Source of the DNA: Firmicutes bacterium CAG:460
Lineage (GTDB): Bacteria; Bacillota_I; Bacilli_A; RF39; UBA660
Length of the DNA: 64,000 bases
NCBI GenBank assembly: GCA_000437355.1
Contig: FR899764.1
Coordinates: 24,884-88,883, forward strand
Direction of reading: 5' to 3'
The position numbers and the translations under genes were made by a program. Under the pieces are notes generated by a model, which was not told where the DNA came from, ran no database searches, and saw nothing but the letters and a program-made list of their open reading frames with translations. Positions 36,820-64,000 of this stretch are shown piece after piece. Every line of letters starts with the position of its first letter. Within the stretch, counting starts at the first letter, position 1.

Positions 36820-36833
36820 TGGTGGAGAATGTG
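36820..36833. repeat. Left att core (lysis-proximal junction)
   Basis: TGGTGGAGAATGTG. With the adjacent phage-side bases it forms the perfect dyad TGGTGGA-GAATGTG-TCCACCA. Confidence 0.85.
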
Positions 36834-36877
36834 TCCACCAAATAAGCCCTTTATTTCCTTATTATAAGGCTTTTTTA

Positions 36878-36904
36878 TTTTTTTACCGCCATTTTTTACC
36901 GCCA
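36878..36904. repeat. Tandem arm-type repeats TTTTTACCGCC(A) x2, left arm
   Basis: tttttttaccgcca / ttttttaccgcca. The same motif recurs at 63438-63462 in the same orientation. Confidence 0.6.
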
Positions 36905-56935: not shown

Positions 56936-57116
56936 ATCCTTTATTATATTTGTCTTTTACTTTTTCAAATCTTTTTAAATATGATGGACTAGCATAAAAT
57001 TCTATTGTTTCAGGTTTCACATTACACTTTTCCGCTAATTCTTTTGCTGTACCTATATCTATAAATTTATCACCTTTATAGATTGCATATTCTATAATCT
57101 TTTTTTTAATCAACAA
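56913..57116 (-). CDS. Hypothetical phage protein
   Basis: 67-aa ORF. Possible HTH (IGTAKELAEKCNVKPETI). Confidence 0.4.
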   Translation of the reverse strand: MLIKKKIIEYAIYKGDKFIDIGTAKELAEKCNVKPETIEFYASPSYLKRFEKVKDKYNKGFVCIRLS

Positions 57117-57322
57117 TCATCACCTTCATAATTTATGCATTTTTTAAGAAAATCATAATTCTTATTAGTTAAAATGATAACAGTTTCGAAAACCTCTTTT
57201 GTTAGATTCCAGACTGCTCCAAATGTATTTTCAATATCAATCCCTTTGAATGCACATTCATTTGCAAATTTATAAAGTTCTTTTTCATAATCTGATAATT
57301 CTTTACTATTCATAACTATCAT
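57110..57322 (-). CDS. Hypothetical phage protein
   Basis: 70-aa ORF. Confidence 0.4.
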   Translation of the reverse strand: MIVMNSKELSDYEKELYKFANECAFKGIDIENTFGAVWNLTKEVFETVIILTNKNYDFLKKCINYEGDDC

Positions 57323-57653
57323 TCCTTTCCAGTTCTTGTATTAGATTTATAATTTTTTCAATAAATTCTTTATTATCATGGGTAGAATTGATTTTCAAAA
57401 TTTTAAAATGATCCTTTAACTTATTCCATTTCTTTTTATAATCATTAATTTCACAAAGCTCATTTCGTAATTCTATGACATCATCTTCTCTACGATTGTT
57501 GCTTCTTTCTAAATATTTAATTCTCTTTTGCTGTTGCTCAATATCTTGTCGTAATTTATCACAGTCTTTATGCATATATACGAGTTCTCTTGCTAATTCT
57601 CCTTTTGAAAAATTATCTTTATAGCCTTGTTTGTCAAATATTCCTAATCTCAT
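57306..57653 (-). CDS. Hypothetical coiled-coil phage protein
   Basis: 115-aa ORF overlapping the recombinase gene stop. Confidence 0.45.
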   Translation of the reverse strand: MRLGIFDKQGYKDNFSKGELARELVYMHKDCDKLRQDIEQQQKRIKYLERSNNRREDDVIELRNELCEINDYKKKWNKLKDHFKILKINSTHDNKEFIEKIINLIQELERNDSYE

Positions 57654-58318
57654 CTTTTTTTTGCACCACCAATATAAATCGACTCACGATCTTCTTCAAC
57701 ATCATTCATATCCCACATTACATAAAACATTGTAATCGATGGATCTTCGTGGTTATACATTCTTTGAAGGGTTACGAGCTTACCACCATTTTTAATAAAT
57801 TGATATCCAAATGTTTTTCTTAAACTATGAAGTTCAAATCTAAAATCAATTCCACAAGCATTAATTACTTTTGCGAATATTGTTTGTCTACAATTTTGTC
57901 TAGTAATTGGATAAATCACCTCTTTAGTAACTCCGTTATAAGTATCTTTTTTCTTTTGTCCCATAAACAAGTAACTGTTGCTATTTAATTTGTATTTTGC
58001 TACATACTGCATTATTTCATTATGCAAATCTTTATTCATTCTGAAATGTTGCCATTTACCAGTCTTATTTTCCTTTATTGAAACATAACCTTTTTCAACA
58101 TCTTTTACTTTCAGCTGAAGTAAATCCTCTGCTCTGAAAGCGGTGTTAAAACCAATTAGAAATAACATGTAATTTCTGTCTGCTTGATATTTTTTTATAG
58201 GTGTTTTAGCACTCGCAGCTTGAAATCGTAGATAATCCATTACTCTTTTAAGAAGCTTTTCATCTTTAATTGGCAGTGTTTTTCCTTTACCACCACTAGT
58301 TTTAATTCTTCTAGTCAT
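57650..58318 (-). CDS. Minimal tyrosine recombinase (catalytic domain only), second recombinase of the prophage
   Basis: 222 aa. Candidate catalytic residues in FRAEDLL (Arg), HSLRKTFG (His-x-x-Arg), YNH and MFYV (Tyr). No long N-terminal arm-binding domain. Confidence 0.7.
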   Translation of the reverse strand: MTRRIKTSGGKGKTLPIKDEKLLKRVMDYLRFQAASAKTPIKKYQADRNYMLFLIGFNTAFRAEDLLQLKVKDVEKGYVSIKENKTGKWQHFRMNKDLHNEIMQYVAKYKLNSNSYLFMGQKKKDTYNGVTKEVIYPITRQNCRQTIFAKVINACGIDFRFELHSLRKTFGYQFIKNGGKLVTLQRMYNHEDPSITMFYVMWDMNDVEEDRESIYIGGAKKR

Positions 58319-58331
58319 TTTTTATCCTTTC

Positions 58332-58433
58332 TTTGTCCACTAATCTGAGGAAATCATTATCATAGAATAAGGGATGATGTATAATGAAAAGACTGATAAG
58401 ACGTTTAATAATTTCCTCAACTTAGTGGACAAA
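58332..58433. repeat. Imperfect inverted repeat (28-bp arms, 25/28) enclosing a 46-bp segment, directly upstream of the small recombinase gene
   Basis: Left arm TTTGTCCACTAATCTGAGGAAATCATTA (58332-58359). Right arm reverse complement TTTGTCCACTAAGTTGAGGAAATTATTA (58406-58433). The loop holds a plus-strand TTATCA, 17 nt, TATAAT (58357-58385). Confidence 0.85.
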
Positions 58434-58441
58434 TTTTTAAT

Positions 58442-58684
58442 TTAGTCCTCTTTGTATTCAACTAGTTTTTTTCTAATTAAATCACTTACATCTTCTGCTT
58501 CAACATTGTACCCCATTAAATGACCATTTTCTTCATGATATTTTTTAATAGATGCATCTTTTAAGATTTCAATAAAAGCAAAAGTATCATCGTTTTTAAG
58601 TAATTTTGTATAACCTCCTAAGGTATCTTTATACCCGAGTTTTTCTAGTTCCTTCAATTTTTTTAAATCTCTAAATACATACAT
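58442..58684 (-). CDS. Hypothetical phage protein
   Basis: 80-aa ORF. Confidence 0.45.
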   Translation of the reverse strand: MYVFRDLKKLKELEKLGYKDTLGGYTKLLKNDDTFAFIEILKDASIKKYHEENGHLMGYNVEAEDVSDLIRKKLVEYKED

Positions 58685-58889
58685 CTTTTTTTACCTCCGC
58701 ATAGCACTTTTCGCAAACATTGATTTCTTTTACAATTTCTTTACCATAAGTTGTAATAAGTCTCTTTCTAGTTCCATTTCCAACTTCATATTGATATACT
58801 TTATCTCTAAAACCGATTGGATATTTATATAGTTTTTCACCTGGTGCTGTAGTTCTTTTACACTTCTCACATTTAAACATTTTAATCAA
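58671..58889 (-). CDS. Zinc-ribbon phage protein
   Basis: Paired CxxC motifs (CEKCKRT ... CEKCYAE). Confidence 0.5.
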   Translation of the reverse strand: MIKMFKCEKCKRTTAPGEKLYKYPIGFRDKVYQYEVGNGTRKRLITTYGKEIVKEINVCEKCYAEVKKDVCI

Positions 58890-58895
58890 TCCCTT

Positions 58896-59114
58896 CTAAT
58901 CTTTTTTAAATCTTTTTATTGCTTCTTCTAAGTCGGATATATATTCATTTCCGCAAAATCCACAATTATCTTTTCTTCCTAACAACTGTCTTGTAATAAC
59001 ATATTTTTCAAAATTATTAGGTACAAAGAAAAGGTATTTTCCTTCTTTTTGCTTTATCAAATAACATTCGCCTAAACCTGGATTAATAACTTTTTCATAT
59101 AACTTTAATTTCAT
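58896..59114 (-). CDS. Hypothetical phage protein
   Basis: 72-aa ORF. Confidence 0.45.
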   Translation of the reverse strand: MKLKLYEKVINPGLGECYLIKQKEGKYLFFVPNNFEKYVITRQLLGRKDNCGFCGNEYISDLEEAIKRFKKD

Positions 59115-59392
59115 ACTTCCTCCTTAATATCTTCTAATTTTGTGTTTTCCGGATAACCTAAAACAAATAACAATGCTTTTATTTGCCCATCTTCATATAC
59201 TTTCATTGTTCCATTTGATGGGGCTTTAATAAGATATTTCAACTCTCTAATAATTTCATGTCGTGATTTAATAGCTCCATATTTTTCATATAATAATCTA
59301 TTTTGTTGTTCTAATGACAAGACTTTAGCTTTTAACTTTAATATTTCACGTTCTTTATCATCAGTCTTCGGAATTTCCCCGTAAAGCATCAA
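59111..59392 (-). CDS. Hypothetical phage protein
   Basis: 93-aa ORF. Confidence 0.45.
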   Translation of the reverse strand: MMLYGEIPKTDDKEREILKLKAKVLSLEQQNRLLYEKYGAIKSRHEIIRELKYLIKAPSNGTMKVYEDGQIKALLFVLGYPENTKLEDIKEEV

Positions 59393-59849
59393 TTTCTTTC
59401 AACGTCCTTCTAACAGAATTTTTTTGAACTCTTGGAGCTTTCATTTTTTGAGTTGTTCCTTTACAACTTCTTATTTTTTTTACTTTAAGAACTTTTTCAC
59501 TTTTTTCAAGTTCTTCAATTGTTCTTTTTAATGCATTTATTATTCTTTGCATACCACCACGAGCTGAATTAGATAGTCTTAATTTCTTTTCTAGTTCCAA
59601 TATTTTGTCATCTTTTTCACGATTAAGATTTGTTTTAAAATTAATTAATTCTTCAAATTTTTTGCCACTATTTTTCAAATTTTCTATTTGTTTTAAATAA
59701 TTATTTTCTTTTTTAGATTTGTCTTCTAAAACTCTATAATTTCTATCTTTTTCACATTTTAATGAATCCTTTAGTTTTTCAATTTCAATTTTTGCTAAAC
59801 TCAATTCACCTTTTAATTTATTGTATTTTTTACCACTAACTAGTATCAT
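59361..59849 (-). CDS. Hypothetical coiled-coil phage protein
   Basis: 162-aa ORF, Lys/Glu-rich. Confidence 0.45.
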   Translation of the reverse strand: MILVSGKKYNKLKGELSLAKIEIEKLKDSLKCEKDRNYRVLEDKSKKENNYLKQIENLKNSGKKFEELINFKTNLNREKDDKILELEKKLRLSNSARGGMQRIINALKRTIEELEKSEKVLKVKKIRSCKGTTQKMKAPRVQKNSVRRTLKEIDALRGNSED

Positions 59850-59851
59850 TT

Positions 59852-60544
59852 TTAATCAGCTCCTTTACTATGTAACCAGTCAAAGTTTAAAACTTCTTTT
59901 TGCTCATCGGTTAACTCAATTTCTGAATTATTTAATGAACTTATAACACCTGATTTAAAATTTTCAACCTTTGTTTTCCCCATGTTTTTCCAATTAGTTA
60001 AAATTCCATCAATATAACCAATTGAAACTTTTTCATTTCTCTTTGCTATTTCAATAGCTGCTTTAATTACATCAAGTTCAAATGTACTTTCCCACCTTTC
60101 GATTATTTCAAATTCATTTTGATTTATTGTTCTTTTTATTTCTTTTTCTAATAAAAGAAATAAATCATTATCATTTACATTTTCATTATCATTTACATTT
60201 TCATTTTCATTAAACTTGTTTTGTTTGTTTTTGCTTGTTTTGCTTGATTGATTGTTTTTGCAAGCATTTTTATTACCTTTAGGAGCACCGCCCCTTTGCC
60301 CAGCCATACTGCGTTTAAGAGTAATTTGATTGTATTTTTCATTGTCAACAAGCAATTGGTTGTTTATGAAATCAAAAGCCATTTCTATATCATTTTCTAA
60401 AACAACCTCATTTCCGAGTTGTTTTTCAAATAATGCTCTAAAAAGTCTTCCGAGTTGTTCATTGTTCAACTTTTTAATAATGTTATAATGAGAAAAATAA
60501 AATATTATACTGTCTTTTTCTTTCACATTTTTGTTCCCTTTCAT
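59852..60544 (-). CDS. Replication initiation/organiser protein with a C-terminal DnaD-like domain
   Basis: The C-terminus FEIIERWESTFELDVIKAAIEIAKRNEKVSIGYIDGILTNWKNMG matches the DnaD/DnaB_2 repeat. A low-complexity linker lies in the middle. Confidence 0.65.
   Translation of the reverse strand: MKGNKNVKEKDSIIFYFSHYNIIKKLNNEQLGRLFRALFEKQLGNEVVLENDIEMAFDFINNQLLVDNEKYNQITLKRSMAGQRGGAPKGNKNACKNNQSSKTSKNKQNKFNENENVNDNENVNDNDLFLLLEKEIKRTINQNEFEIIERWESTFELDVIKAAIEIAKRNEKVSIGYIDGILTNWKNMGKTKVENFKSGVISSLNNSEIELTDEQKEVLNFDWLHSKGAD
60165..60210. repeat. 18-bp tandem repeat (2.5 copies) inside the replication gene linker
   Basis: tcattatcatttacattt at 60165-60182 and 60183-60200, plus a partial copy. 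Encodes NENVND repeats. Confidence 0.8.
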
Positions 60545-60579
60545 TTAATTTTTAACCCAACCAATTGCCCCTGAAATTT

Positions 60580-60804
60580 TTATTTTATATTTTTGCTTTT
60601 AAGATAAGCATCTATATAGTCGAAGCATGTAACTGCAATAGTAGCTTCTATAAGATTTGCAACAATTCCATAAACAGTAAAAGTTCCATTAAACGCAACA
60701 GCTATTATCCAATCAGTAATAAACATGATTGTTGTTATGACGCCAAGCAGAAATATTAATGTATTTTTTAGATTAATTTTCATTTGCACTTTCCCCCTTT
60801 TCAT
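60580..60804 (-). CDS. Small phage membrane protein
   Basis: 74 aa, two TM helices. Confidence 0.45.
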   Translation of the reverse strand: MKRGKVQMKINLKNTLIFLLGVITTIMFITDWIIAVAFNGTFTVYGIVANLIEATIAVTCFDYIDAYLKSKNIK

Positions 60805-60985
60805 TTTTCATTTCAAATTGGTTATCCCAAAACTTTTTTAATATTCTTCCACTATATGTAACAATTTCTGGATATTTTTCTTTTATTTCTTCATTTAATT
60901 TATAAATCAAATCATAACATTTTGTTCTTTTATATCCTGTTTGTTTCATAATTTCTTTAACTGTATAAAATTCATTTTCTTTCAT
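60773..60985 (-). CDS. Small HTH DNA-binding protein (excisionase-like candidate)
   Basis: YTVKEIMKQTGYKRTKCYDLIYKL resembles excisionase/MerR-type HTH. First gene of the early operon after the cro-like gene. Confidence 0.45.
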   Translation of the reverse strand: MKENEFYTVKEIMKQTGYKRTKCYDLIYKLNEEIKEKYPEIVTYSGRILKKFWDNQFEMKNEKGESANEN

Positions 60986-61034
60986 ATAAAATAAGATCCT
61001 TTCTTTATATCACTTTTGTTTTGTTTTAAAAAAG

Positions 61035-61060
61035 ATTTTGTTTTAGTCTTGTCGGACTTT
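61035..61060. repeat. Left copy of the 26-bp perfect inverted repeat
   Basis: attttgttttagtcttgtcggacttt is the exact reverse complement of 62144-62169. Confidence 0.95.
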
Positions 61061-61295
61061 ATTCACATTTTGTGGATGTACTATTTAAATAAAAACAACT
61101 TAATTCACACCCAATAGCATTAGAAATATAAAATAATAATATAGCACTAATTTTACTAGCATCAGTTTCATATTTAATATAAGTTTTACGAGAAATACCA
61201 ACTTCTTTAGCAATATCATCTTGAGTTTTATTTGCTCTATTTCTTTCAGCTTTAATATTATTCGCAATAGTAATACCATTAACAGTATAATTCAT
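61059..61295 (-). CDS. Cro-like XRE-family HTH protein
   Basis: Start at ATG 61295 after GGGAGGTG. HTH KTQDDIAKEVGISRKTYIKYE. Confidence 0.75.
   Translation of the reverse strand: MNYTVNGITIANNIKAERNRANKTQDDIAKEVGISRKTYIKYETDASKISAILLFYISNAIGCELSCFYLNSTSTKCE
61064..61079. promoter_or_regulatory. Operator-like site copy 3 (inside the cro-like gene 3' end)
   Basis: CACATTTTGTGGATGT, identical over 16 bp to 61330-61345. Confidence 0.5.
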
Positions 61296-61319
61296 TTTAT
61301 CACCTCCCAACTTTACTTA

Positions 61320-61348
61320 ATTATAACTCCACATTTTGTGGATGTCAA
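61320..61348 (-). promoter_or_regulatory. Early (cro-side) promoter with perfect consensus
   Basis: On the minus strand: TTGACA (61343-61348), a 17-nt spacer, then TATAAT (61320-61325). The spacer is the palindromic operator. Confidence 0.75.
61329..61341. promoter_or_regulatory. Palindromic operator CCACATTTTGTGG
   Basis: Perfect 13-bp palindrome lying exactly in the early-promoter spacer. Confidence 0.7.
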
Positions 61349-61357
61349 TATCTTTTT

Positions 61358-61370
61358 ACACATTTTGTGT
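61358..61370. promoter_or_regulatory. Second palindromic operator ACACATTTTGTGT
   Basis: Perfect 13-bp palindrome, 29 bp centre-to-centre from the first. Confidence 0.6.
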
Positions 61371-61378
61371 ATTTTTAG

Positions 61379-61407
61379 TTGATTATAGTAAATTATAAGT
61401 GTATAAT
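61379..61407 (+). promoter_or_regulatory. Repressor-side promoter
   Basis: TTGATT (61379-61384), a 17-nt spacer, then TATAAT (61402-61407), upstream of the cI-like gene. Confidence 0.65.
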
Positions 61408-61430
61408 ACATATAGAAAGAAGTGATTTAG

Positions 61431-61664
61431 ATGAAATTGAACTTATATCTTTCTTCGAATATTAAATATTTAAGACAAGTGAGAGGAAAAACACAAGAAG
61501 ATTTAGGAAAAATATGTAATAAAAAAAACACTGCCATTAGCAATTGGGAAAATGGAATACGAGAACCAAGTGCAATAGATTTAGCAAGACTAGCAAATTA
61601 TTTCAATGTAAGTATAGATGATTTAATAATAAAAGACTTAAAAAATAATGAGGAGGAAAAATGA
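61431..61664 (+). CDS. Short cI-like XRE-family repressor (HTH only, no peptidase/oligomerisation domain)
   Basis: 77 aa. HTH KTQEDLGKICNKKNTAISNWENG. Divergent from the cro-like gene. Confidence 0.75.
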   Translation: MKLNLYLSSNIKYLRQVRGKTQEDLGKICNKKNTAISNWENGIREPSAIDLARLANYFNVSIDDLIIKDLKNNEEEK

Positions 61665-62092
61665 TAAATAAAAGCTATTTAAAAACTCTATTATTGATAA
61701 GTATTATATTTATTTTATCTGGTTGTAGCAATAATAACAAACAAGATATAAGTGAAAATCAAATAATAAGAGAAGAAATAATATGTACAGATTACAACGA
61801 AATGGCAGAATGCACACAAAAAACATTAATGTTAAATTTCAAAATTAATTATCTTTATTCAAATAGGTCAACCATACTACAAAATTATTATAATATAGAA
61901 AAATATATAAAAAATAATAATCTAGAAGATATTAATAATATTCAATATATTGGTTATATTAACGATAACAAAATTATTTCTTTTAATGTAAATAAAGAAC
62001 TTATTAGCAAAATTAAAAATAAAGAAATAATAGTCTATGATTATGAAGATGAATTAAATGAACTATGGATAAGTAATGAATTAAAAAAATAG
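61661..62092 (+). CDS. Prophage lipoprotein (superinfection-exclusion candidate)
   Basis: Lipobox FILSGC. Co-transcribed with the repressor (ATGA overlap). Confidence 0.6.
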   Translation: MINKSYLKTLLLISIIFILSGCSNNNKQDISENQIIREEIICTDYNEMAECTQKTLMLNFKINYLYSNRSTILQNYYNIEKYIKNNNLEDINNIQYIGYINDNKIISFNVNKELISKIKNKEIIVYDYEDELNELWISNELKK

Positions 62093-62103
62093 AAAAACAA
62101 AAA

Positions 62104-62127
62104 AAGCCTCGTGCTGGAACACGAAGC
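62104..62127 (-). terminator. Hairpin whose U-run is on the minus strand, lying between two plus-strand genes
   Basis: Plus strand reads A7-GCCTCGTG-ctggaa-CACGAAGC-aaaa. Only the minus-strand transcript would end in a U-run. Confidence 0.4.
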
Positions 62128-62143
62128 AAAATGAAAAATCACA

Positions 62144-62169
62144 AAAGTCCGACAAGACTAAAACAAAAT
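62144..62169. repeat. Right copy of the 26-bp perfect inverted repeat
   Basis: aaagtccgacaagactaaaacaaaat. It lies ~90 nt upstream of the integrase ATG, and a TATAAT sits at 62179-62184. Confidence 0.95.
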
Positions 62170-62259
62170 ATCAAGCGATATAATGTTTATGGATCTTTCA
62201 TATTCATTATATCACAAATGCATAAAAAAACAAAGAAAAATATACAAGGAGTGATAAAA

Positions 62260-63426
62260 ATGAATACAAAAATATATGAAAGAACTAGATGGGAAAATAT
62301 ATATAGACATAAAACAAATAAAAATTACGTAATTAGATTCAATGGTAAAGTTGAAACTAGTGTATCTAAGGATGAACGTGGCAATAAAATATTTGATTCT
62401 GAAACAGCAAGAAGAATTAGAGATAACCAAATAATTATTAATCAAAAGAAAATCCAAATTAAGCATAAAGAATTAATTGATGATCATTGGGATAGATATA
62501 TTGAGGAATGCAAGTATATGAAAAAACAAGCATATAACACTATAATAAGAAAAACAAAAGCATATAACAAATATATCAGAAGTAAAATATTAATGCCAGT
62601 CAATAAAATATCAAAAGATTATTGGGCAAAATATATTGATAAATTAGAATGTTCAGATAAACAAAAAAATCAATTAATAAAAACATTGAAAGCATTTTTA
62701 AATTGGTGTGTAGACGAAAATATCATTGTTCAAAATGAAATGAAAAAAGTAAAAAATTATAAAGTTGTAAAAGCTGAAATGAAGTACTGGTCACCTTTAG
62801 AAATTAAAACCTTCTTCACTAAAATTGATAGCTTAATAGAAACAGCCAATGACTTAACCTTTAAAAGACAATCTCTTATGATTAAAACTCTTGTCATGAT
62901 TAATTTTTGTTTAGGAGATAGAATTGGTGAAACAAGAGCTTTAACTTTTAATGATATAAATGAAAATAATATGACAATAAGAATAGCACACTCAATAAAT
63001 TATGATATAAAGTCAAAAGACTATTTATCTAATACAAAAAATTATCAATCACAACGTGATGTTCTAATAACTAATAAATTGATAACTCAAATTAAATTAT
63101 ACAAAGATTTTTTGTTAAATGAAATGAAATATAAGGTTACAGATGACTCACTAATATTCTATAATTATGAGTATGATAAACCACTATCAGATACAACAAT
63201 AAGAAATCAGTTTAAAAGATTTTGTCAATTATGTGGGGTCACTAAAATAAGATTATACGATTTAAGACATACCTACGTTGCCACGATGATGGCTGAAGGG
63301 AAAGAATTATATCAAATAAGTTCACGACTTGGACATAGCAGTTATGCAACTACTGTCAATAAATATGGTCATCTTTCAACTGAAATAAAAAAAGAAATAG
63401 CAAATACTACTGATAAATATCTATAA
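62260..63426 (+). CDS. int: Phage integrase (tyrosine recombinase)
   Basis: Start at ATG 62260 after AAGGAG. C-terminal catalytic motifs (GDRIGETRAL, LYDLRHTYVATMM, LGHSSYATTVNKYGH). Adjacent to the tRNA junction. Confidence 0.9.
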   Translation: MNTKIYERTRWENIYRHKTNKNYVIRFNGKVETSVSKDERGNKIFDSETARRIRDNQIIINQKKIQIKHKELIDDHWDRYIEECKYMKKQAYNTIIRKTKAYNKYIRSKILMPVNKISKDYWAKYIDKLECSDKQKNQLIKTLKAFLNWCVDENIIVQNEMKKVKNYKVVKAEMKYWSPLEIKTFFTKIDSLIETANDLTFKRQSLMIKTLVMINFCLGDRIGETRALTFNDINENNMTIRIAHSINYDIKSKDYLSNTKNYQSQRDVLITNKLITQIKLYKDFLLNEMKYKVTDDSLIFYNYEYDKPLSDTTIRNQFKRFCQLCGVTKIRLYDLRHTYVATMMAEGKELYQISSRLGHSSYATTVNKYGHLSTEIKKEIANTTDKYL

Positions 63427-63437
63427 AATCAGTGGTA

Positions 63438-63462
63438 TTTTTTTACCGCCTTTTTACCGTGG
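63438..63462. repeat. Tandem arm-type repeats TTTTTACCGCC / TTTTTACCGTGG, right arm
   Basis: Same motif and orientation as 36878-36904. Confidence 0.6.
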
Positions 63463-63518
63463 AATATATGAAAAATACGGAAAAAGCGGAATTTGTGGAC
63501 GGAAACAGCACTAAAAAA

Positions 63519-63540
63519 AGCCCGAAAATATGGGCTTTTG
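63519..63540 (+). terminator. Bidirectional terminator between int and tRNA-Ala
   Basis: agccc-gaaaatat-gggct flanked by A7 and T4. Confidence 0.6.
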
Positions 63541-63549
63541 ACATCTTCA

Positions 63550-63563
63550 TGGTGGAGAATGTG
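63550..63563. repeat. Right att core (int/tRNA-proximal junction)
   Basis: TGGTGGAGAATGTG, identical to 36820-36833. Confidence 0.85.
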
Positions 63564-63626
63564 GGACTCGAACCCGCGACCCCCACGGTGCAAGCGTGGT
63601 GCTCTAGCCAACTGAGCTAATTCCCC
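63550..63626 (-). tRNA. tRNA-Ala (anticodon UGC)
   Basis: Hand-folded cloverleaf: acceptor GGGGAAU/AUUCUCC with the G3:U70 Ala identity pair, anticodon loop CUUGCAC, T-loop UUCGAGU, encoded CCA. The 3' 14 nt are the att core. Confidence 0.9.
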
Positions 63627-63668
63627 AGGAACAAAATTATTTTATCATACATCGATAAAATAATCAAG

Positions 63669-63878
63669 CTATTTTTGCGGTTCTTCAATAATTTTTATCA
63701 ATCCAGCTTCAACTTCTTCAAGCGCACGCCCTAAACTCTTCTTGTTTTTATAATCACATTCCTTCATTTGATAGTGATTATTTTCAAGCATTTGCTTACT
63801 TCTGATTGATGCTACATGAACCAATTTGTACTTAGAATCTACTATATTTAGTAGCTTATCTATTGATGGATATAACAT
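63669..63878 (-). CDS. rpoZ: DNA-directed RNA polymerase subunit omega
   Basis: MLYPSIDKLLNIVDSKYKLVHVASIRSKQM matches the RpoZ N-terminus. The track ORF has a 12-codon upstream extension. Confidence 0.85.
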   Translation of the reverse strand: MLYPSIDKLLNIVDSKYKLVHVASIRSKQMLENNHYQMKECDYKNKKSLGRALEEVEAGLIKIIEEPQK

Positions 63879-64000
63879 GATATACACTCCCTTTTCATTA
63901 CTTATAATACGCATTTTATAAAGTTATTGCAAGAAAATCATAAAAATTTGACACAAATTTGACACATTATTTTATTAACTTAAGACTTTTGCTGTAATTT

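Follow-up and report, generated by a model that had tools for sequence, protein, structure and literature searches.

A perfect inverted repeat around a prophage immunity module probably marks a trans-acting antisense RNA gene and its target in the early transcript

The window, i.e. the whole stretch of 64,000 nt from Firmicutes bacterium CAG:460 that was analysed, carries a prophage with its immunity module bracketed by an inverted repeat, and we consider it probable that the two arms of this repeat represent a trans-acting kissing-loop antisense RNA and its target, by which the early, excision-side operon would be repressed. As claimed in the original prediction, ATTTTGTTTTAGTCTTGTCGGACTTT (61035–61060) is the perfect reverse complement of the sequence at 62144–62169 (26 of 26 positions), and the spacer between the two 26-bp arms is 1,083 nt. 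A search of the 64 kb for the 26-mer with up to 3 mismatches returned two sites only, which were the arms themselves, and the 26-mer was without a match in all of 100 shuffles that preserved dinucleotides; the repeat lies far outside chance expectation. The right arm ends 90 nt before the ATG of int (62260) and is followed by a plus-strand TATAAT (62179–62184); the left arm, read on the minus strand, begins inside the cro-like stop codon and leaves 49 nt to the ATG of the xis-like gene (60985), both distances being as originally given. The content ascribed to the interval was likewise correct, since a cro-like gene, divergent promoters, operators, a cI-like gene and a lipoprotein gene were all found. 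The switch and its surroundings are arranged as follows:

57650–58318: small tyrosine recombinase gene
61035–61060, minus strand: left arm, predicted target site AAAGUCCGACAAGACUAAAACAAAAU in the early (cro to xis-like) transcript
61059–61295, minus strand: cro-like HTH_3 gene, 78 aa from the ATG
61064–61079: third operator copy, inside the last codons of the cro-like gene and adjoining the left arm
61320–61407: the two divergent switch promoters together
61348 to 61320, minus strand: early (lytic) promoter, TTGACA-17-TATAAT
61379–61407, plus strand: maintenance promoter, TTGATT-17-TATAAT
61330–61345 and 61359–61374: operators, CACATTTTGTGGATGT
61431–61664, plus strand: cI-like HTH_3 gene
61661–62092, plus strand: lipoprotein gene
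62144–62169, minus strand: right arm, minus-strand reading AUUUUGUUUUAGUCUUGUCGGACUUU, seed of the predicted small RNA (sRNA)
62260–63426, plus strand: tyrosine integrase gene int, the upstream region of which overlaps the predicted sRNA gene and promoter on the opposite strand
63550–63626, minus strand: tRNA-Ala, the 3′ end of which, TGGTGGAGAATGTG, is the att core

Based on the second copy of the att core at 36820–36833, the prophage extends from about 36.8 to 63.6 kb.

Next to int, the minus strand carries the signals of a discrete small RNA gene with a promoter and a terminator of its own, as judged at the level of sequence:

62206–62233, minus strand: predicted sRNA promoter, −35 TTGTTT (62233–62228) and −10 TATAAT (62211–62206)
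62199 to 62098, minus strand: predicted sRNA gene, about 100 nt, matched by the covariance model with 112 bits
62096–62127, minus strand: intrinsic terminator, stem GCTTCGTGTTCCAGCACGAGGC then TTTTTTTGTT, with a hairpin (62127 to 62106) and a T-run

The predicted promoter reads TTGTTT-16-TGaTATAAT, with the TG at 62214–62213 within the 16-nt spacer and the predicted 5′ end of the RNA 7 nt after the −10 box. This layout (TTGnTT-16/17-TGnTATAAT-7 nt) was kept in all 10 backbones for which upstream sequence was available, among them loci with unrelated integrases (L024 and L025). The terminator adjoins the right arm and is present on the minus strand only, the plus strand having no T-run; it was kept in all relatives, with stem substitutions that preserve pairing. 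Folding of the minus strand gave a minimum free energy of −30.5 to −31.6 kcal/mol (z, −5.6 to −6.0), as compared to −21.0 for the plus strand, and all sRNA variants shared one fold (z, −5.2 to −6.5), consisting of a closing stem, an inner hairpin, the arm hairpin with a variable hexaloop, a U-rich linker and the terminator hairpin. In the arm hairpin, the 4-bp stem AGUC/GACU displays the hexaloop UUGUCG, and it is this loop, between the invariant stem halves, that corresponds to the variable hexamer. In each locus, the covariance model found exactly one full-length unit of promoter, arm and terminator, always on the expected strand, and it also recovered L025, which had been left out of the training set (E = 2e-6). 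Since the internal helices are almost unchanging (two-sided changes in 2 of 29 pairs; effective sequence number, 1.22), the fold is backed by energy and conservation and not by covariation. The RNA of about 100 nt and both its 5′ and 3′ ends are given here as predictions. Searches of Rfam 15, with 57000–64000 at E ≤ 1 and with the whole window at the gathering score, matched only the tRNA-Ala. A longer integrase open reading frame (62131–63426) including the right arm was also considered; it was rejected because relatives have stop codons in the extension that runs in frame upstream of int, and indels in the arm shift the frame, indicating that the arm is non-coding.

At or near the ribosome-binding site of the first early gene, the early transcript shows extended complementarity to the predicted RNA, and the features concerned, in addition to the left arm, are:

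60993–61015, minus strand: complementary blocks 2 and 3 in the xis-like leader, read from the sequence
60773–60985, minus strand: xis-like gene, the first early gene after cro, 70 aa, assigned to phrog_989 and directly downstream of the predicted target site

The left arm is positioned between the cro-like stop codon and this ribosome-binding site. Block 2, AAGUGAUAUAA (61015–61005), complements UUAUAUCGCUU of the sRNA (62183–62173), and block 3, GGAUCUU (60999–60993), overlaps the Shine-Dalgarno sequence AAAGGA and complements AAGAUCC of the sRNA (62197–62191). The predicted duplex reaches across blocks 2 and 3 in arm types A to F, and in type G (L025) the predicted pairing runs straight into the Shine-Dalgarno sequence of the phrog_989 gene, GGUAAGGAG. 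In the window, the 26-nt site stops 35–40 nt short of the Shine-Dalgarno sequence, and it is the weaker pairing of blocks 2 and 3 that would have to occlude the latter. The leader is predicted to be otherwise unstructured. In every relative, 12 to 26 nt could pair (26 of 26 in the window), always within the leader between cro and the phrog_989 gene, and the putative target genes of L024 and L025 likewise belong to phrog_989, a family annotated as "unknown function" in PHROGs. The name xis-like, taken from the original prediction, is used here as a label, because membership in Xis, HTH_17 or Tn916-Xis was not found by Pfam, PHROGs, PDB profile or AlphaFold plus Foldseek fold comparison: the protein gave only noise against Pfam at E ≤ 10 and in the PDB sequence profile search, and its AF2 model (pLDDT, 75.5) gave best fold matches with E > 2 against PDB by Foldseek, TorI excisionase being at E = 6. 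A 67-aa two-helix membrane protein is encoded after the xis-like gene, and a type I toxin-antitoxin pair was considered for this reason; the protein bears no toxin marks, and the leader at which the predicted RNA is directed belongs to the first gene, so the idea was dropped.

Conservation of the arm pair in related prophages, a point raised by the original prediction, was borne out among the related loci collected from metagenome and viral contigs, which carry seven arm types, each matched by its partner. There were five hexamer cores, i.e. TTGTCG/CGACAA, CTAGCA/TGCTAG, TTAGCC/GGCTAA, CTACCA/TGGTAG and GACCAA/TTGGTC, and two further, unrelated arm pairs, GTTTTGACTGACTT/AAGTCAGTCAAAAC and CGTTGCGTGATT/AATCACGCAACG; L024 and L025, whose arms bear no sequence relationship to the others, nevertheless have the same scaffold. 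When the whole locus was searched, the best complement to the sRNA arm lay between cro and the phrog_989 gene in every case. A target defined by position only was complementary in all 31 loci from which a script retrieved both motifs, and the six-base cores were complementary in 35 of 35 hexaloop-type loci (these 31 and 4 checked by eye). An earlier pair count and shuffle test was circular, as the targets had been picked by complement, and it was redone with targets set by position; in the earlier version, subject to that circularity, all 6 core columns paired in every distinct row with two-sided changes, and the score was reached by 0 of 500 shuffles, slid registers being 35–53% paired versus 91%. 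The predicted cognate duplex was the most stable one in 6 of 7 rows, in energies that ignore intramolecular structure, with type B RNA scoring slightly better on the type D target. The arm type tracks the cI/cro/operator type, and several relatives have the same integrase and the same downstream genes and differ in the module alone. These observations suggest that changes in the putative RNA specificity are matched in the target between module types. Outside this set, blastn of 60500–63500 against GenBank phages gave no match, and a scan of a genome collection with the cro-like protein gave one distant Oscillospiraceae locus (L008, 38% identity), in which the RNA model had no match. L026, obtained from a terminator-pattern scan, was a false positive on a GC-rich, unrelated contig.

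By the mechanism that we propose, the predicted promoter, in the gap that separates the cI operon from int, would drive leftward transcription on the strand that also carries the early lytic genes, and a structured RNA of about 100 nt would be made that stops at its own terminator and offers the loop UUGUCG, within the 26-nt stretch, on a hairpin. Pairing would probably begin as a loop-loop kiss and then spread, and it would stop translation and/or provoke cleavage of the early transcript downstream of cro, so that leaky or incoming early transcripts would not express the excision and replication side in a resident prophage. Production of the RNA, its pairing and its repressive effect are the three steps that we infer. 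The same RNA probably also acts on int in cis: its gene runs antisense to the sequence upstream of int, and between the cI operon and int the plus strand has no terminator, and therefore the RNA may damp int. With its own matched loop in each module type, the RNA would be a second, type-specific immunity determinant. Tentatively, and with less confidence than for the antisense pair itself, we suggest that it may belong to an undescribed prophage sRNA family of low-GC gut bacteria that forms a lock on excision and early genes, in trans on the first early gene and in cis on int, and that a fast-evolving six-base loop code (at least 5 alleles plus two unrelated seeds) may define RNA heteroimmunity groups, which would be exchanged together with the cI/cro module.

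Identical inverted copies by themselves would be equally expected of a shared protein site or of recombination sites, and the choice among models rests on context and not on the covariation itself. The original prediction had offered a cis-regulatory reading, in which the 26-mer is a duplex-DNA site for one protein that co-regulates int and the xis-like gene. That the two copies form one system ahead of these genes still holds; they are identical and oriented alike relative to the gene that each precedes, a promoter-like −10 box comes after either copy, and matched variation is likewise expected if the same protein binds both. A protein site is nevertheless improbable. Phages of type A and of type B share an Int of 100% identity while 4 of the 6 core positions differ between them, and the xis-like protein P0003 is found unchanged beside either core, and therefore neither protein reads the core; cI and cro, the only module-specific DNA binders, have clearly different operators (sequences other than the arm in three module types, with three copies per module); the arms of L024 and L025 have no sequence in common with the others in spite of the shared scaffold; and the strand-specific terminator, the promoter and the fold would be left unexplained. 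The distance from the site to the −10-like box is also unequal (9 versus 25 nt), by which a role of the arm as −35 element of int and xis promoters was ruled out as well. A different objection applies to the RNA acting mainly as a cis-antisense on int, through convergent transcription and pairing with cI-int read-through, with the xis-side copy as a decoy or sponge; firing of the early promoter would then let the early transcript titrate the RNA and release int, i.e. regulation would run in the direction opposite to that of the antisense repression of the early operon. The overlap of the RNA gene and promoter with the int upstream region on the opposite strand, the open path from the cI operon into int, and the plus-strand TATAAT that faces the sRNA promoter are in line with this, but the complementarity that enters the phrog_989 Shine-Dalgarno sequence directly in L025 and covers that region by blocks 2 and 3 in types A to F resembles a regulated target more than a passive decoy, and the plus-strand TATAAT is missing in L025, so that it may merely be the complement of an RNA stem. 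We regard this arrangement, too, as unlikely.

The other reading in the original prediction, that the arms are crossover sites at which Int or the small tyrosine recombinase inverts the entire switch, is the one to which we give the least credence. It would suit the perfect repeat, the two tyrosine recombinases encoded by the phage, the resemblance of AGTC-N6-GACT to a recombinase core with a 6-bp overlap that is free to vary if the partners match, and one contig, L033, in which int-leader sequence is joined to the xis-like gene. However, no flipped arrangement was present in any of the about 50 related loci: the type-A junction test on related contigs gave 13 and 12 normal junctions and 0 inverted ones for either, and loci with identical integrase had the normal order in 10 of 10 distinct places (24 contigs read). 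In addition, AGTC-N6-GACT gives a symmetry of only 4 bp (types A to D and F) and the arm pairs of L024 and L025 have none; the att core bears no sequence relationship to the arm; three loci (L020, L028 and L032) keep the arm pair with no second recombinase within the 4 kb examined; and a flip would leave the conserved promoter detached from the RNA and the terminator that belong to it. In L033, the junction (ATATCACAAAAACATAAAAAAACAAAGAAAGGATCT; the reciprocal junction would be GTGATATAAAGAAAATAATGAAAG) is at AAAGAAA, outside the arms, and on our reading of the assembly graph the ending of the contig is more in keeping with a duplicated leader than with a flip; a search for this junction in viral contigs gave only two unrelated coding sequences (L036 and L037). 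The antisense-RNA model does not predict this one rearranged leader. Exchange between the two leaders, as suggested by L033, would fit arms that are a functionless leftover of an inverted leader duplication kept alike by gene conversion, and the leaders of int and the xis-like gene are indeed paralogous beyond the 26-mer, sharing the arm, GATATAA and GGATCT. Such an origin is very unlikely to account for the arms, as a hypervariable 6-nt core in conserved flanks, matched in all 35 loci and in five types, and the two unrelated arm pairs at the same positions argue for selection for matching, and the RNA scaffold is conserved beside unrelated integrases.

The antisense RNA proposed here is similar in several respects to the c4 RNA of the P1/P7 immI region. 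In the literature, c4 is described as a small phage RNA acting in trans on a complement near the ribosome-binding site of a lytic-side gene, with the complementary stretches shown in loops, RNA/target differences underlying P1/P7 heteroimmunity, and a place as second tier beside the main protein repressor (PMC12197685, PMC8198154, citing Citron & Schuster 1990). For the present RNA we likewise predict, from the sequence alone, a loop-borne trans complement near a ribosome-binding site, matched differences and a second tier. In contrast, 1) c4 is cut from the operon transcript that holds its target, whereas the predicted RNA has its own promoter and terminator, 2) c4 controls an antirepressor, whereas the target here precedes a phrog_989 gene and is about 1 kb from the RNA gene beside int, and 3) there is no sequence or Rfam relationship between the two, the host here being a low-GC Gram-positive gut bacterium. 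Plasmids, too, have structured antisense RNAs of about this size (100 nt) in which hairpin loops start the pairing (R1 CopA/CopT, ColE1 RNA I/RNA II); in these kissing-loop RNAs the loop sequence sets specificity, and loop changes make new compatibility groups. Unlike the predicted RNA, with its main target at a second locus and in a prophage switch, CopA and RNA I are encoded in cis opposite their targets and control replication. Phage antisense RNAs involved in immunity, lysis-lysogeny or superinfection exclusion include lambda OOP RNA and BTP1 STnc6030 (PMC7067206). P4 CI RNA and P22 sar RNA are further examples. OOP and STnc6030 overlap their targets, whereas the main target here would be about 1 kb away, and none of the four is known to be located beside int with a target at the boundary of cro and the early genes. 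P22 sar also overlaps its target, and P4 CI is processed from the transcript that it terminates. As for invertible switches (Hin/hix, Mu Gin, FimB/FimE and C. difficile RecV), short inverted repeats flanking promoters or genes with recombinase genes nearby are a common trait, but these systems have both orientations in populations and symmetric recombinase half-sites; here, the related contigs showed the normal order only, and the symmetry amounts to 4 bp in types A to D and F.

Should the RNA prove real, the lysis-lysogeny switch of temperate phages from Gram-positive gut bacteria would have a second, RNA-based layer, an idea for which a few phages with Gram-negative hosts (P1/P7, P4 and P22) have hitherto been the main basis. 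The natural, matched loop alleles on an otherwise identical backbone would provide a ready test of how antisense specificity evolves, and they bear on the question whether six RNA bases can set heteroimmunity. The case also calls for caution in that long perfect inverted repeats around regulatory modules need not be inversion sites; in raw sequence, a trans-antisense gene with its target is indistinguishable from a pair of inversion sites.

It was also noticed that two elements of the module, the third operator copy and the minus-strand terminator at the right arm, had been missed in the original prediction, and that the lipoprotein gene is absent in L001, L009 and L011, the modules of which are otherwise identical.

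The sequence ATTTTGTTTTAGTCTTGTCGGACTTT at 61035-61060 has its exact reverse complement at 62144-62169, with 1,083 nt between the two arms. With up to 3 mismatches allowed, the 26-mer was found at only two sites in the 64-kb window, which are the arms themselves, and none of 100 dinucleotide-preserving shuffles gave a match, confirming the perfect 26-bp inverted repeat of the original prediction; the cro-like, cI-like and lipoprotein genes, the divergent promoters and the operators that it had placed in the interval were all located between the arms. The third operator copy and the minus-strand terminator listed below were no part of that prediction. The arm is non-coding: the apparent N-terminal extension of int is interrupted in relatives by stop codons. 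Because the 3′ end of tRNA-Ala recurs at 36820, the prophage is taken to extend over approximately 36.8-63.6 kb.

Features of the switch region and its flanks (window positions)
60985..60773, minus strand: xis-like gene, 70 aa, outside the arms
61295..61059, minus strand: cro-like HTH_3 gene, between the arms
61064-61079: third operator copy, within the last codons of the cro-like gene and directly adjoining the left arm
61320-61407, both strands: divergent consensus promoters with two operator copies, CACATTTTGTGGATGT
61431-61664: cI-like HTH_3 gene, between the arms
61661-62092: lipoprotein gene (lipobox LSGC), between the arms
62127 to 62106 plus T-run: intrinsic terminator, functional on the minus strand only, directly adjoining the right arm
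62260-63426, plus strand: tyrosine integrase gene (int), outside the arms
63550-63626: tRNA-Ala, beyond int, with its 3′ end duplicated at 36820

About 50 related loci were collected by searching viral and metagenome contigs with DNA patterns, either exact or degenerate, and from xis-like protein homologues, the contigs encoding them and contigs encoding the identical integrase; no deposited phage similar to the region was found. These loci are gut-metagenome prophages, located at the same tRNA-Ala/rpoZ site or elsewhere, and they are mosaic, the same xis-like, replication and integrase genes occurring with at least five different cI/cro modules. Two immunity modules and arm types accompany an integrase that is 100% identical to the window's and sits at the same tRNA-Ala/rpoZ site, namely type A, the window's (hexamer TTGTCG), in L041, L043 and L048, and type B (CTAGCA) in L042, L044-L047, L049 and L050.

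Locus L010, which has the window's backbone and a different set of cI, cro and operators, is without the window's 26-mer and carries TATTTTGTTTTTAGTCCTAGCAGACTTTT and AAAAGTCTGCTAGGACAAAAAACAAACTA at the two arm positions. Across the set, the int-side arm reads AGTC-N6-GACT, N6 being TTGTCG, CTAGCA, TTAGCC, CTACCA or GACCAA, and the post-cro arm contains the exact complement of the int-side hexamer. With the target set by position in the xis-like leader only, the arms were complementary in 31 of the 31 loci yielding both motifs, and 4 further loci matched on inspection; the matched pair, whose conservation in related prophages had been proposed as a check, is thus kept in all 35 hexaloop loci with its sequence varying by module. 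In a pair count over distinct rows, each of the six core columns was paired in all rows and had changes on both sides, the observed score was reached by 0 of 500 shuffles, and sliding the register lowered pairing from 91% to 35-53%; the targets in this count were first chosen by complement, so the non-circular support is that of the position-defined comparisons. The architecture is also kept in two much more distant phages with arms unrelated in sequence. In L024, whose integrase is different and whose cI is LexA-like, the best complement of the arm GTTTTGACTGACTT in the 12-kb locus (14/14) falls between cro and the next gene, and in L025 the arm CGTTGCGTGATT has a complement, AATCACGCAACG, directly abutting the SD (GGTAAGGAG) of the gene after cro. 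The gene after the target is in both a member of phrog_989, as is the conserved xis-like gene of the window; its secondary-structure pattern is winged-helix-like, and none of the tests run gave support for the xis label.

In every relative, the int-side arm sits in one conserved unit on the early-gene strand, predicted to specify a small RNA (sRNA). Its promoter consists of TTGnTT, 16-17 nt and TGnTATAAT, and the first base of a stable fold follows 7 nt later. This fold begins with a closing stem, which is followed by an inner hairpin and by the arm hairpin, whose loop contains the variable hexamer; next come a U-rich linker and a GC-rich hairpin with a T-run. Folding of seven variants gave -27 to -32 kcal/mol (z -5.2 to -6.5). 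For the window's interval, the minus strand gave -31.6 kcal/mol (z -6.0) and the plus strand -21.0, a gap that fits G-U pairs existing on the minus strand only. A covariance model built from 11 variants detected a single full-length copy in each locus, in all cases on the early-gene strand, including 62098-62199 (minus) in the window and a match with an E of 2e-6 in L025, which was outside the training set; no Rfam family matched the sRNA region. The A-rich target leader has essentially no structure, except for a small hairpin presenting the complementary loop. Outside the 26-mer, the 5′ part of the sRNA complements two leader blocks, UUAUAUCGCUU pairing with AAGUGAUAUAA and AAGAUCC with GGAUCUU, the latter overlapping the SD. 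The two modules found beside an identical integrase show that modules were exchanged recently, the breakpoints lying within the sRNA and leader regions.

Identical inverted copies are predicted whether the arms are an RNA pair, sites for one shared protein or recombination sites, so that covariation alone is indecisive and the context decides. Most likely, the arms are an antisense RNA and its target, since the terminator works on the minus strand only, the promoter keeps a constant spacing to the fold, the variable bases are in the loop as a hypervariable core within a conserved scaffold, and this scaffold persists beside unrelated integrases. The earlier suggestion of a shared regulatory site for int and the xis-like gene is sound in outline, but a DNA site for one shared protein is unlikely: phages of type A and type B have a 100% identical integrase although their cores differ at 4 of 6 positions, one identical xis-like protein sequence (P0003) occurs with both arm types despite these differences, and cI and cro, as module-specific binders, have recognisable operators whose sequence is clearly other than that of the arm, with three copies in each module of types A, B and C.

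Inversion of the whole switch between the arms, the other original suggestion, was not supported. The flipped arrangement was present in none of the contigs among the related loci. The arm has 4 bp of symmetry only, and in L024 and L025 none; the att core has no relation to the arm, and three loci with the arm pair, L020, L028 and L032, are without the small second recombinase in the flanks examined. Inversion would also sever the conserved promoter from its RNA and terminator. One observation, locus L033 (positions 1-45, Logan ERR1110442_59, compared with L032 2811-2840 and 3960-4003), leaves a small opening for rearrangement between leaders. It is identical to L032 over 4,195 nt from the xis-like ATG, and upstream of this 30 nt of int-leader sequence, representing the sRNA promoter region in inverted orientation, are joined at a shared AAAGAAA to the xis-like SD, the contig ending 30 nt beyond the junction. 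Since the end lies exactly k-1 bases past the junction, with no break at the junction itself, we read L033 as the int-leader being present twice in one genome. The junction, which had no match in viral contigs, could reflect inversion, leader conversion or a chimera; our reading is conversion or duplication between two paralogous leaders rather than a flip.

Under the antisense RNA model, we infer that the prophage would use a dedicated promoter next to int to transcribe a minus-strand RNA of about 100 nt, and that the hexaloop of this RNA would kiss the complementary loop in early transcripts just past cro. Pairing would spread over 26 nt and from there, by way of the two additional blocks, toward the first early gene's SD, and translation would be blocked and/or the duplex cleaved, the sign of the effect being the least certain part. 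The early operon downstream of cro would remain silent unless the early promoter fired enough to out-titrate the RNA. A third operator copy directly before the target, within the end of the cro-like gene, was found in three module types (the window, L010 3911-3929 and L013 3919-3933) with operator sequences differing by module (CACATTTTGTGGATGT, AGTTCAAAAAAATAGAACT and ACTCCAAAATGGAGT), which points to a double lock at the DNA and RNA levels; this copy may be a roadblock or looping site at the same boundary as the RNA. Because the sRNA gene lies antisense to the sequence upstream of int, and no plus-strand terminator was found between the cI operon and int, the RNA may also restrain int.

The plasmid kissing-loop RNAs CopA/CopT and RNA I/II have their specificity in the loop, as is predicted for the RNA of the window, but unlike it they are cis-encoded. 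P22 sar and lambda OOP overlap their targets, unlike the window's RNA, which differs in the same way from STnc6030 of BTP1 (PMC7067206). The closest functional likeness to our RNA, itself a prediction from sequence, is the c4 antisense RNA of P1/P7, which is trans-acting, with complementary stretches in loops, the ribosome-binding-site region as target and matched changes underlying P1/P7 heteroimmunity (PMC12197685, PMC8198154). However, c4 is processed from its target's transcript, whereas the window's RNA has its own predicted promoter and terminator, and the two also have different locations, target genes, hosts and sequences. No similar system is described in a 2025 review of small RNAs derived from phages (PMC12197685). 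Apparently, this is an undescribed RNA layer on a prophage switch, computationally well supported, and the predicted layer comes with a natural allelic series.

The cargo between cI and int varies in relatives (lipoprotein, 411-aa exonuclease/BRCT protein, 84-aa protein or none). Between the sRNA terminator and cI genes that are otherwise near-identical, some loci have the lipoprotein gene and others lack it (window versus L001, L009 and L011), and the 411-aa or 84-aa protein occupies this position in other modules, which makes the region a cargo slot inside the immunity module. It was also noticed that the contig starts of L001, L004 and L007, which are independent assemblies, break at the same base, the TGATATAATG in the sRNA promoter, which would fit co-occurring phage variants that diverge at this mosaic boundary. 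A 9-nt inverted repeat (62177-62185 and 62205-62213, GATATAATG ... CATTATATC) places two TATAAT boxes face to face, the minus-strand one being the predicted sRNA -10 and the plus-strand one a possible int promoter, with the same bases in the sRNA stem; this could be convergent promoter interference or merely the complement of the RNA stem.

Overlapping the end of the xis-like gene is the gene (60580-60783, minus) of a 67-aa protein that is kept in relatives and has two predicted membrane helices; the protein had no family match and is a possible candidate for a toxin under antisense control. The motif TTTTTTTACCGCC lies near both prophage ends (36876-36903 and 63436-63460), beside the 14-bp att core TGGTGGAGAATGTG, and these repeats may be arm-type sites of the integrase. 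Another inverted repeat (58332-58359 and 58406-58433; 28 nt, 89% complementary, with a 46-bp spacer containing TATAAT), which may be the small recombinase's own site, is located just upstream of the small tyrosine recombinase gene (222 aa, 57650-58318); it is kept in relatives with a diverged spacer, its orientation being constant in all loci inspected.
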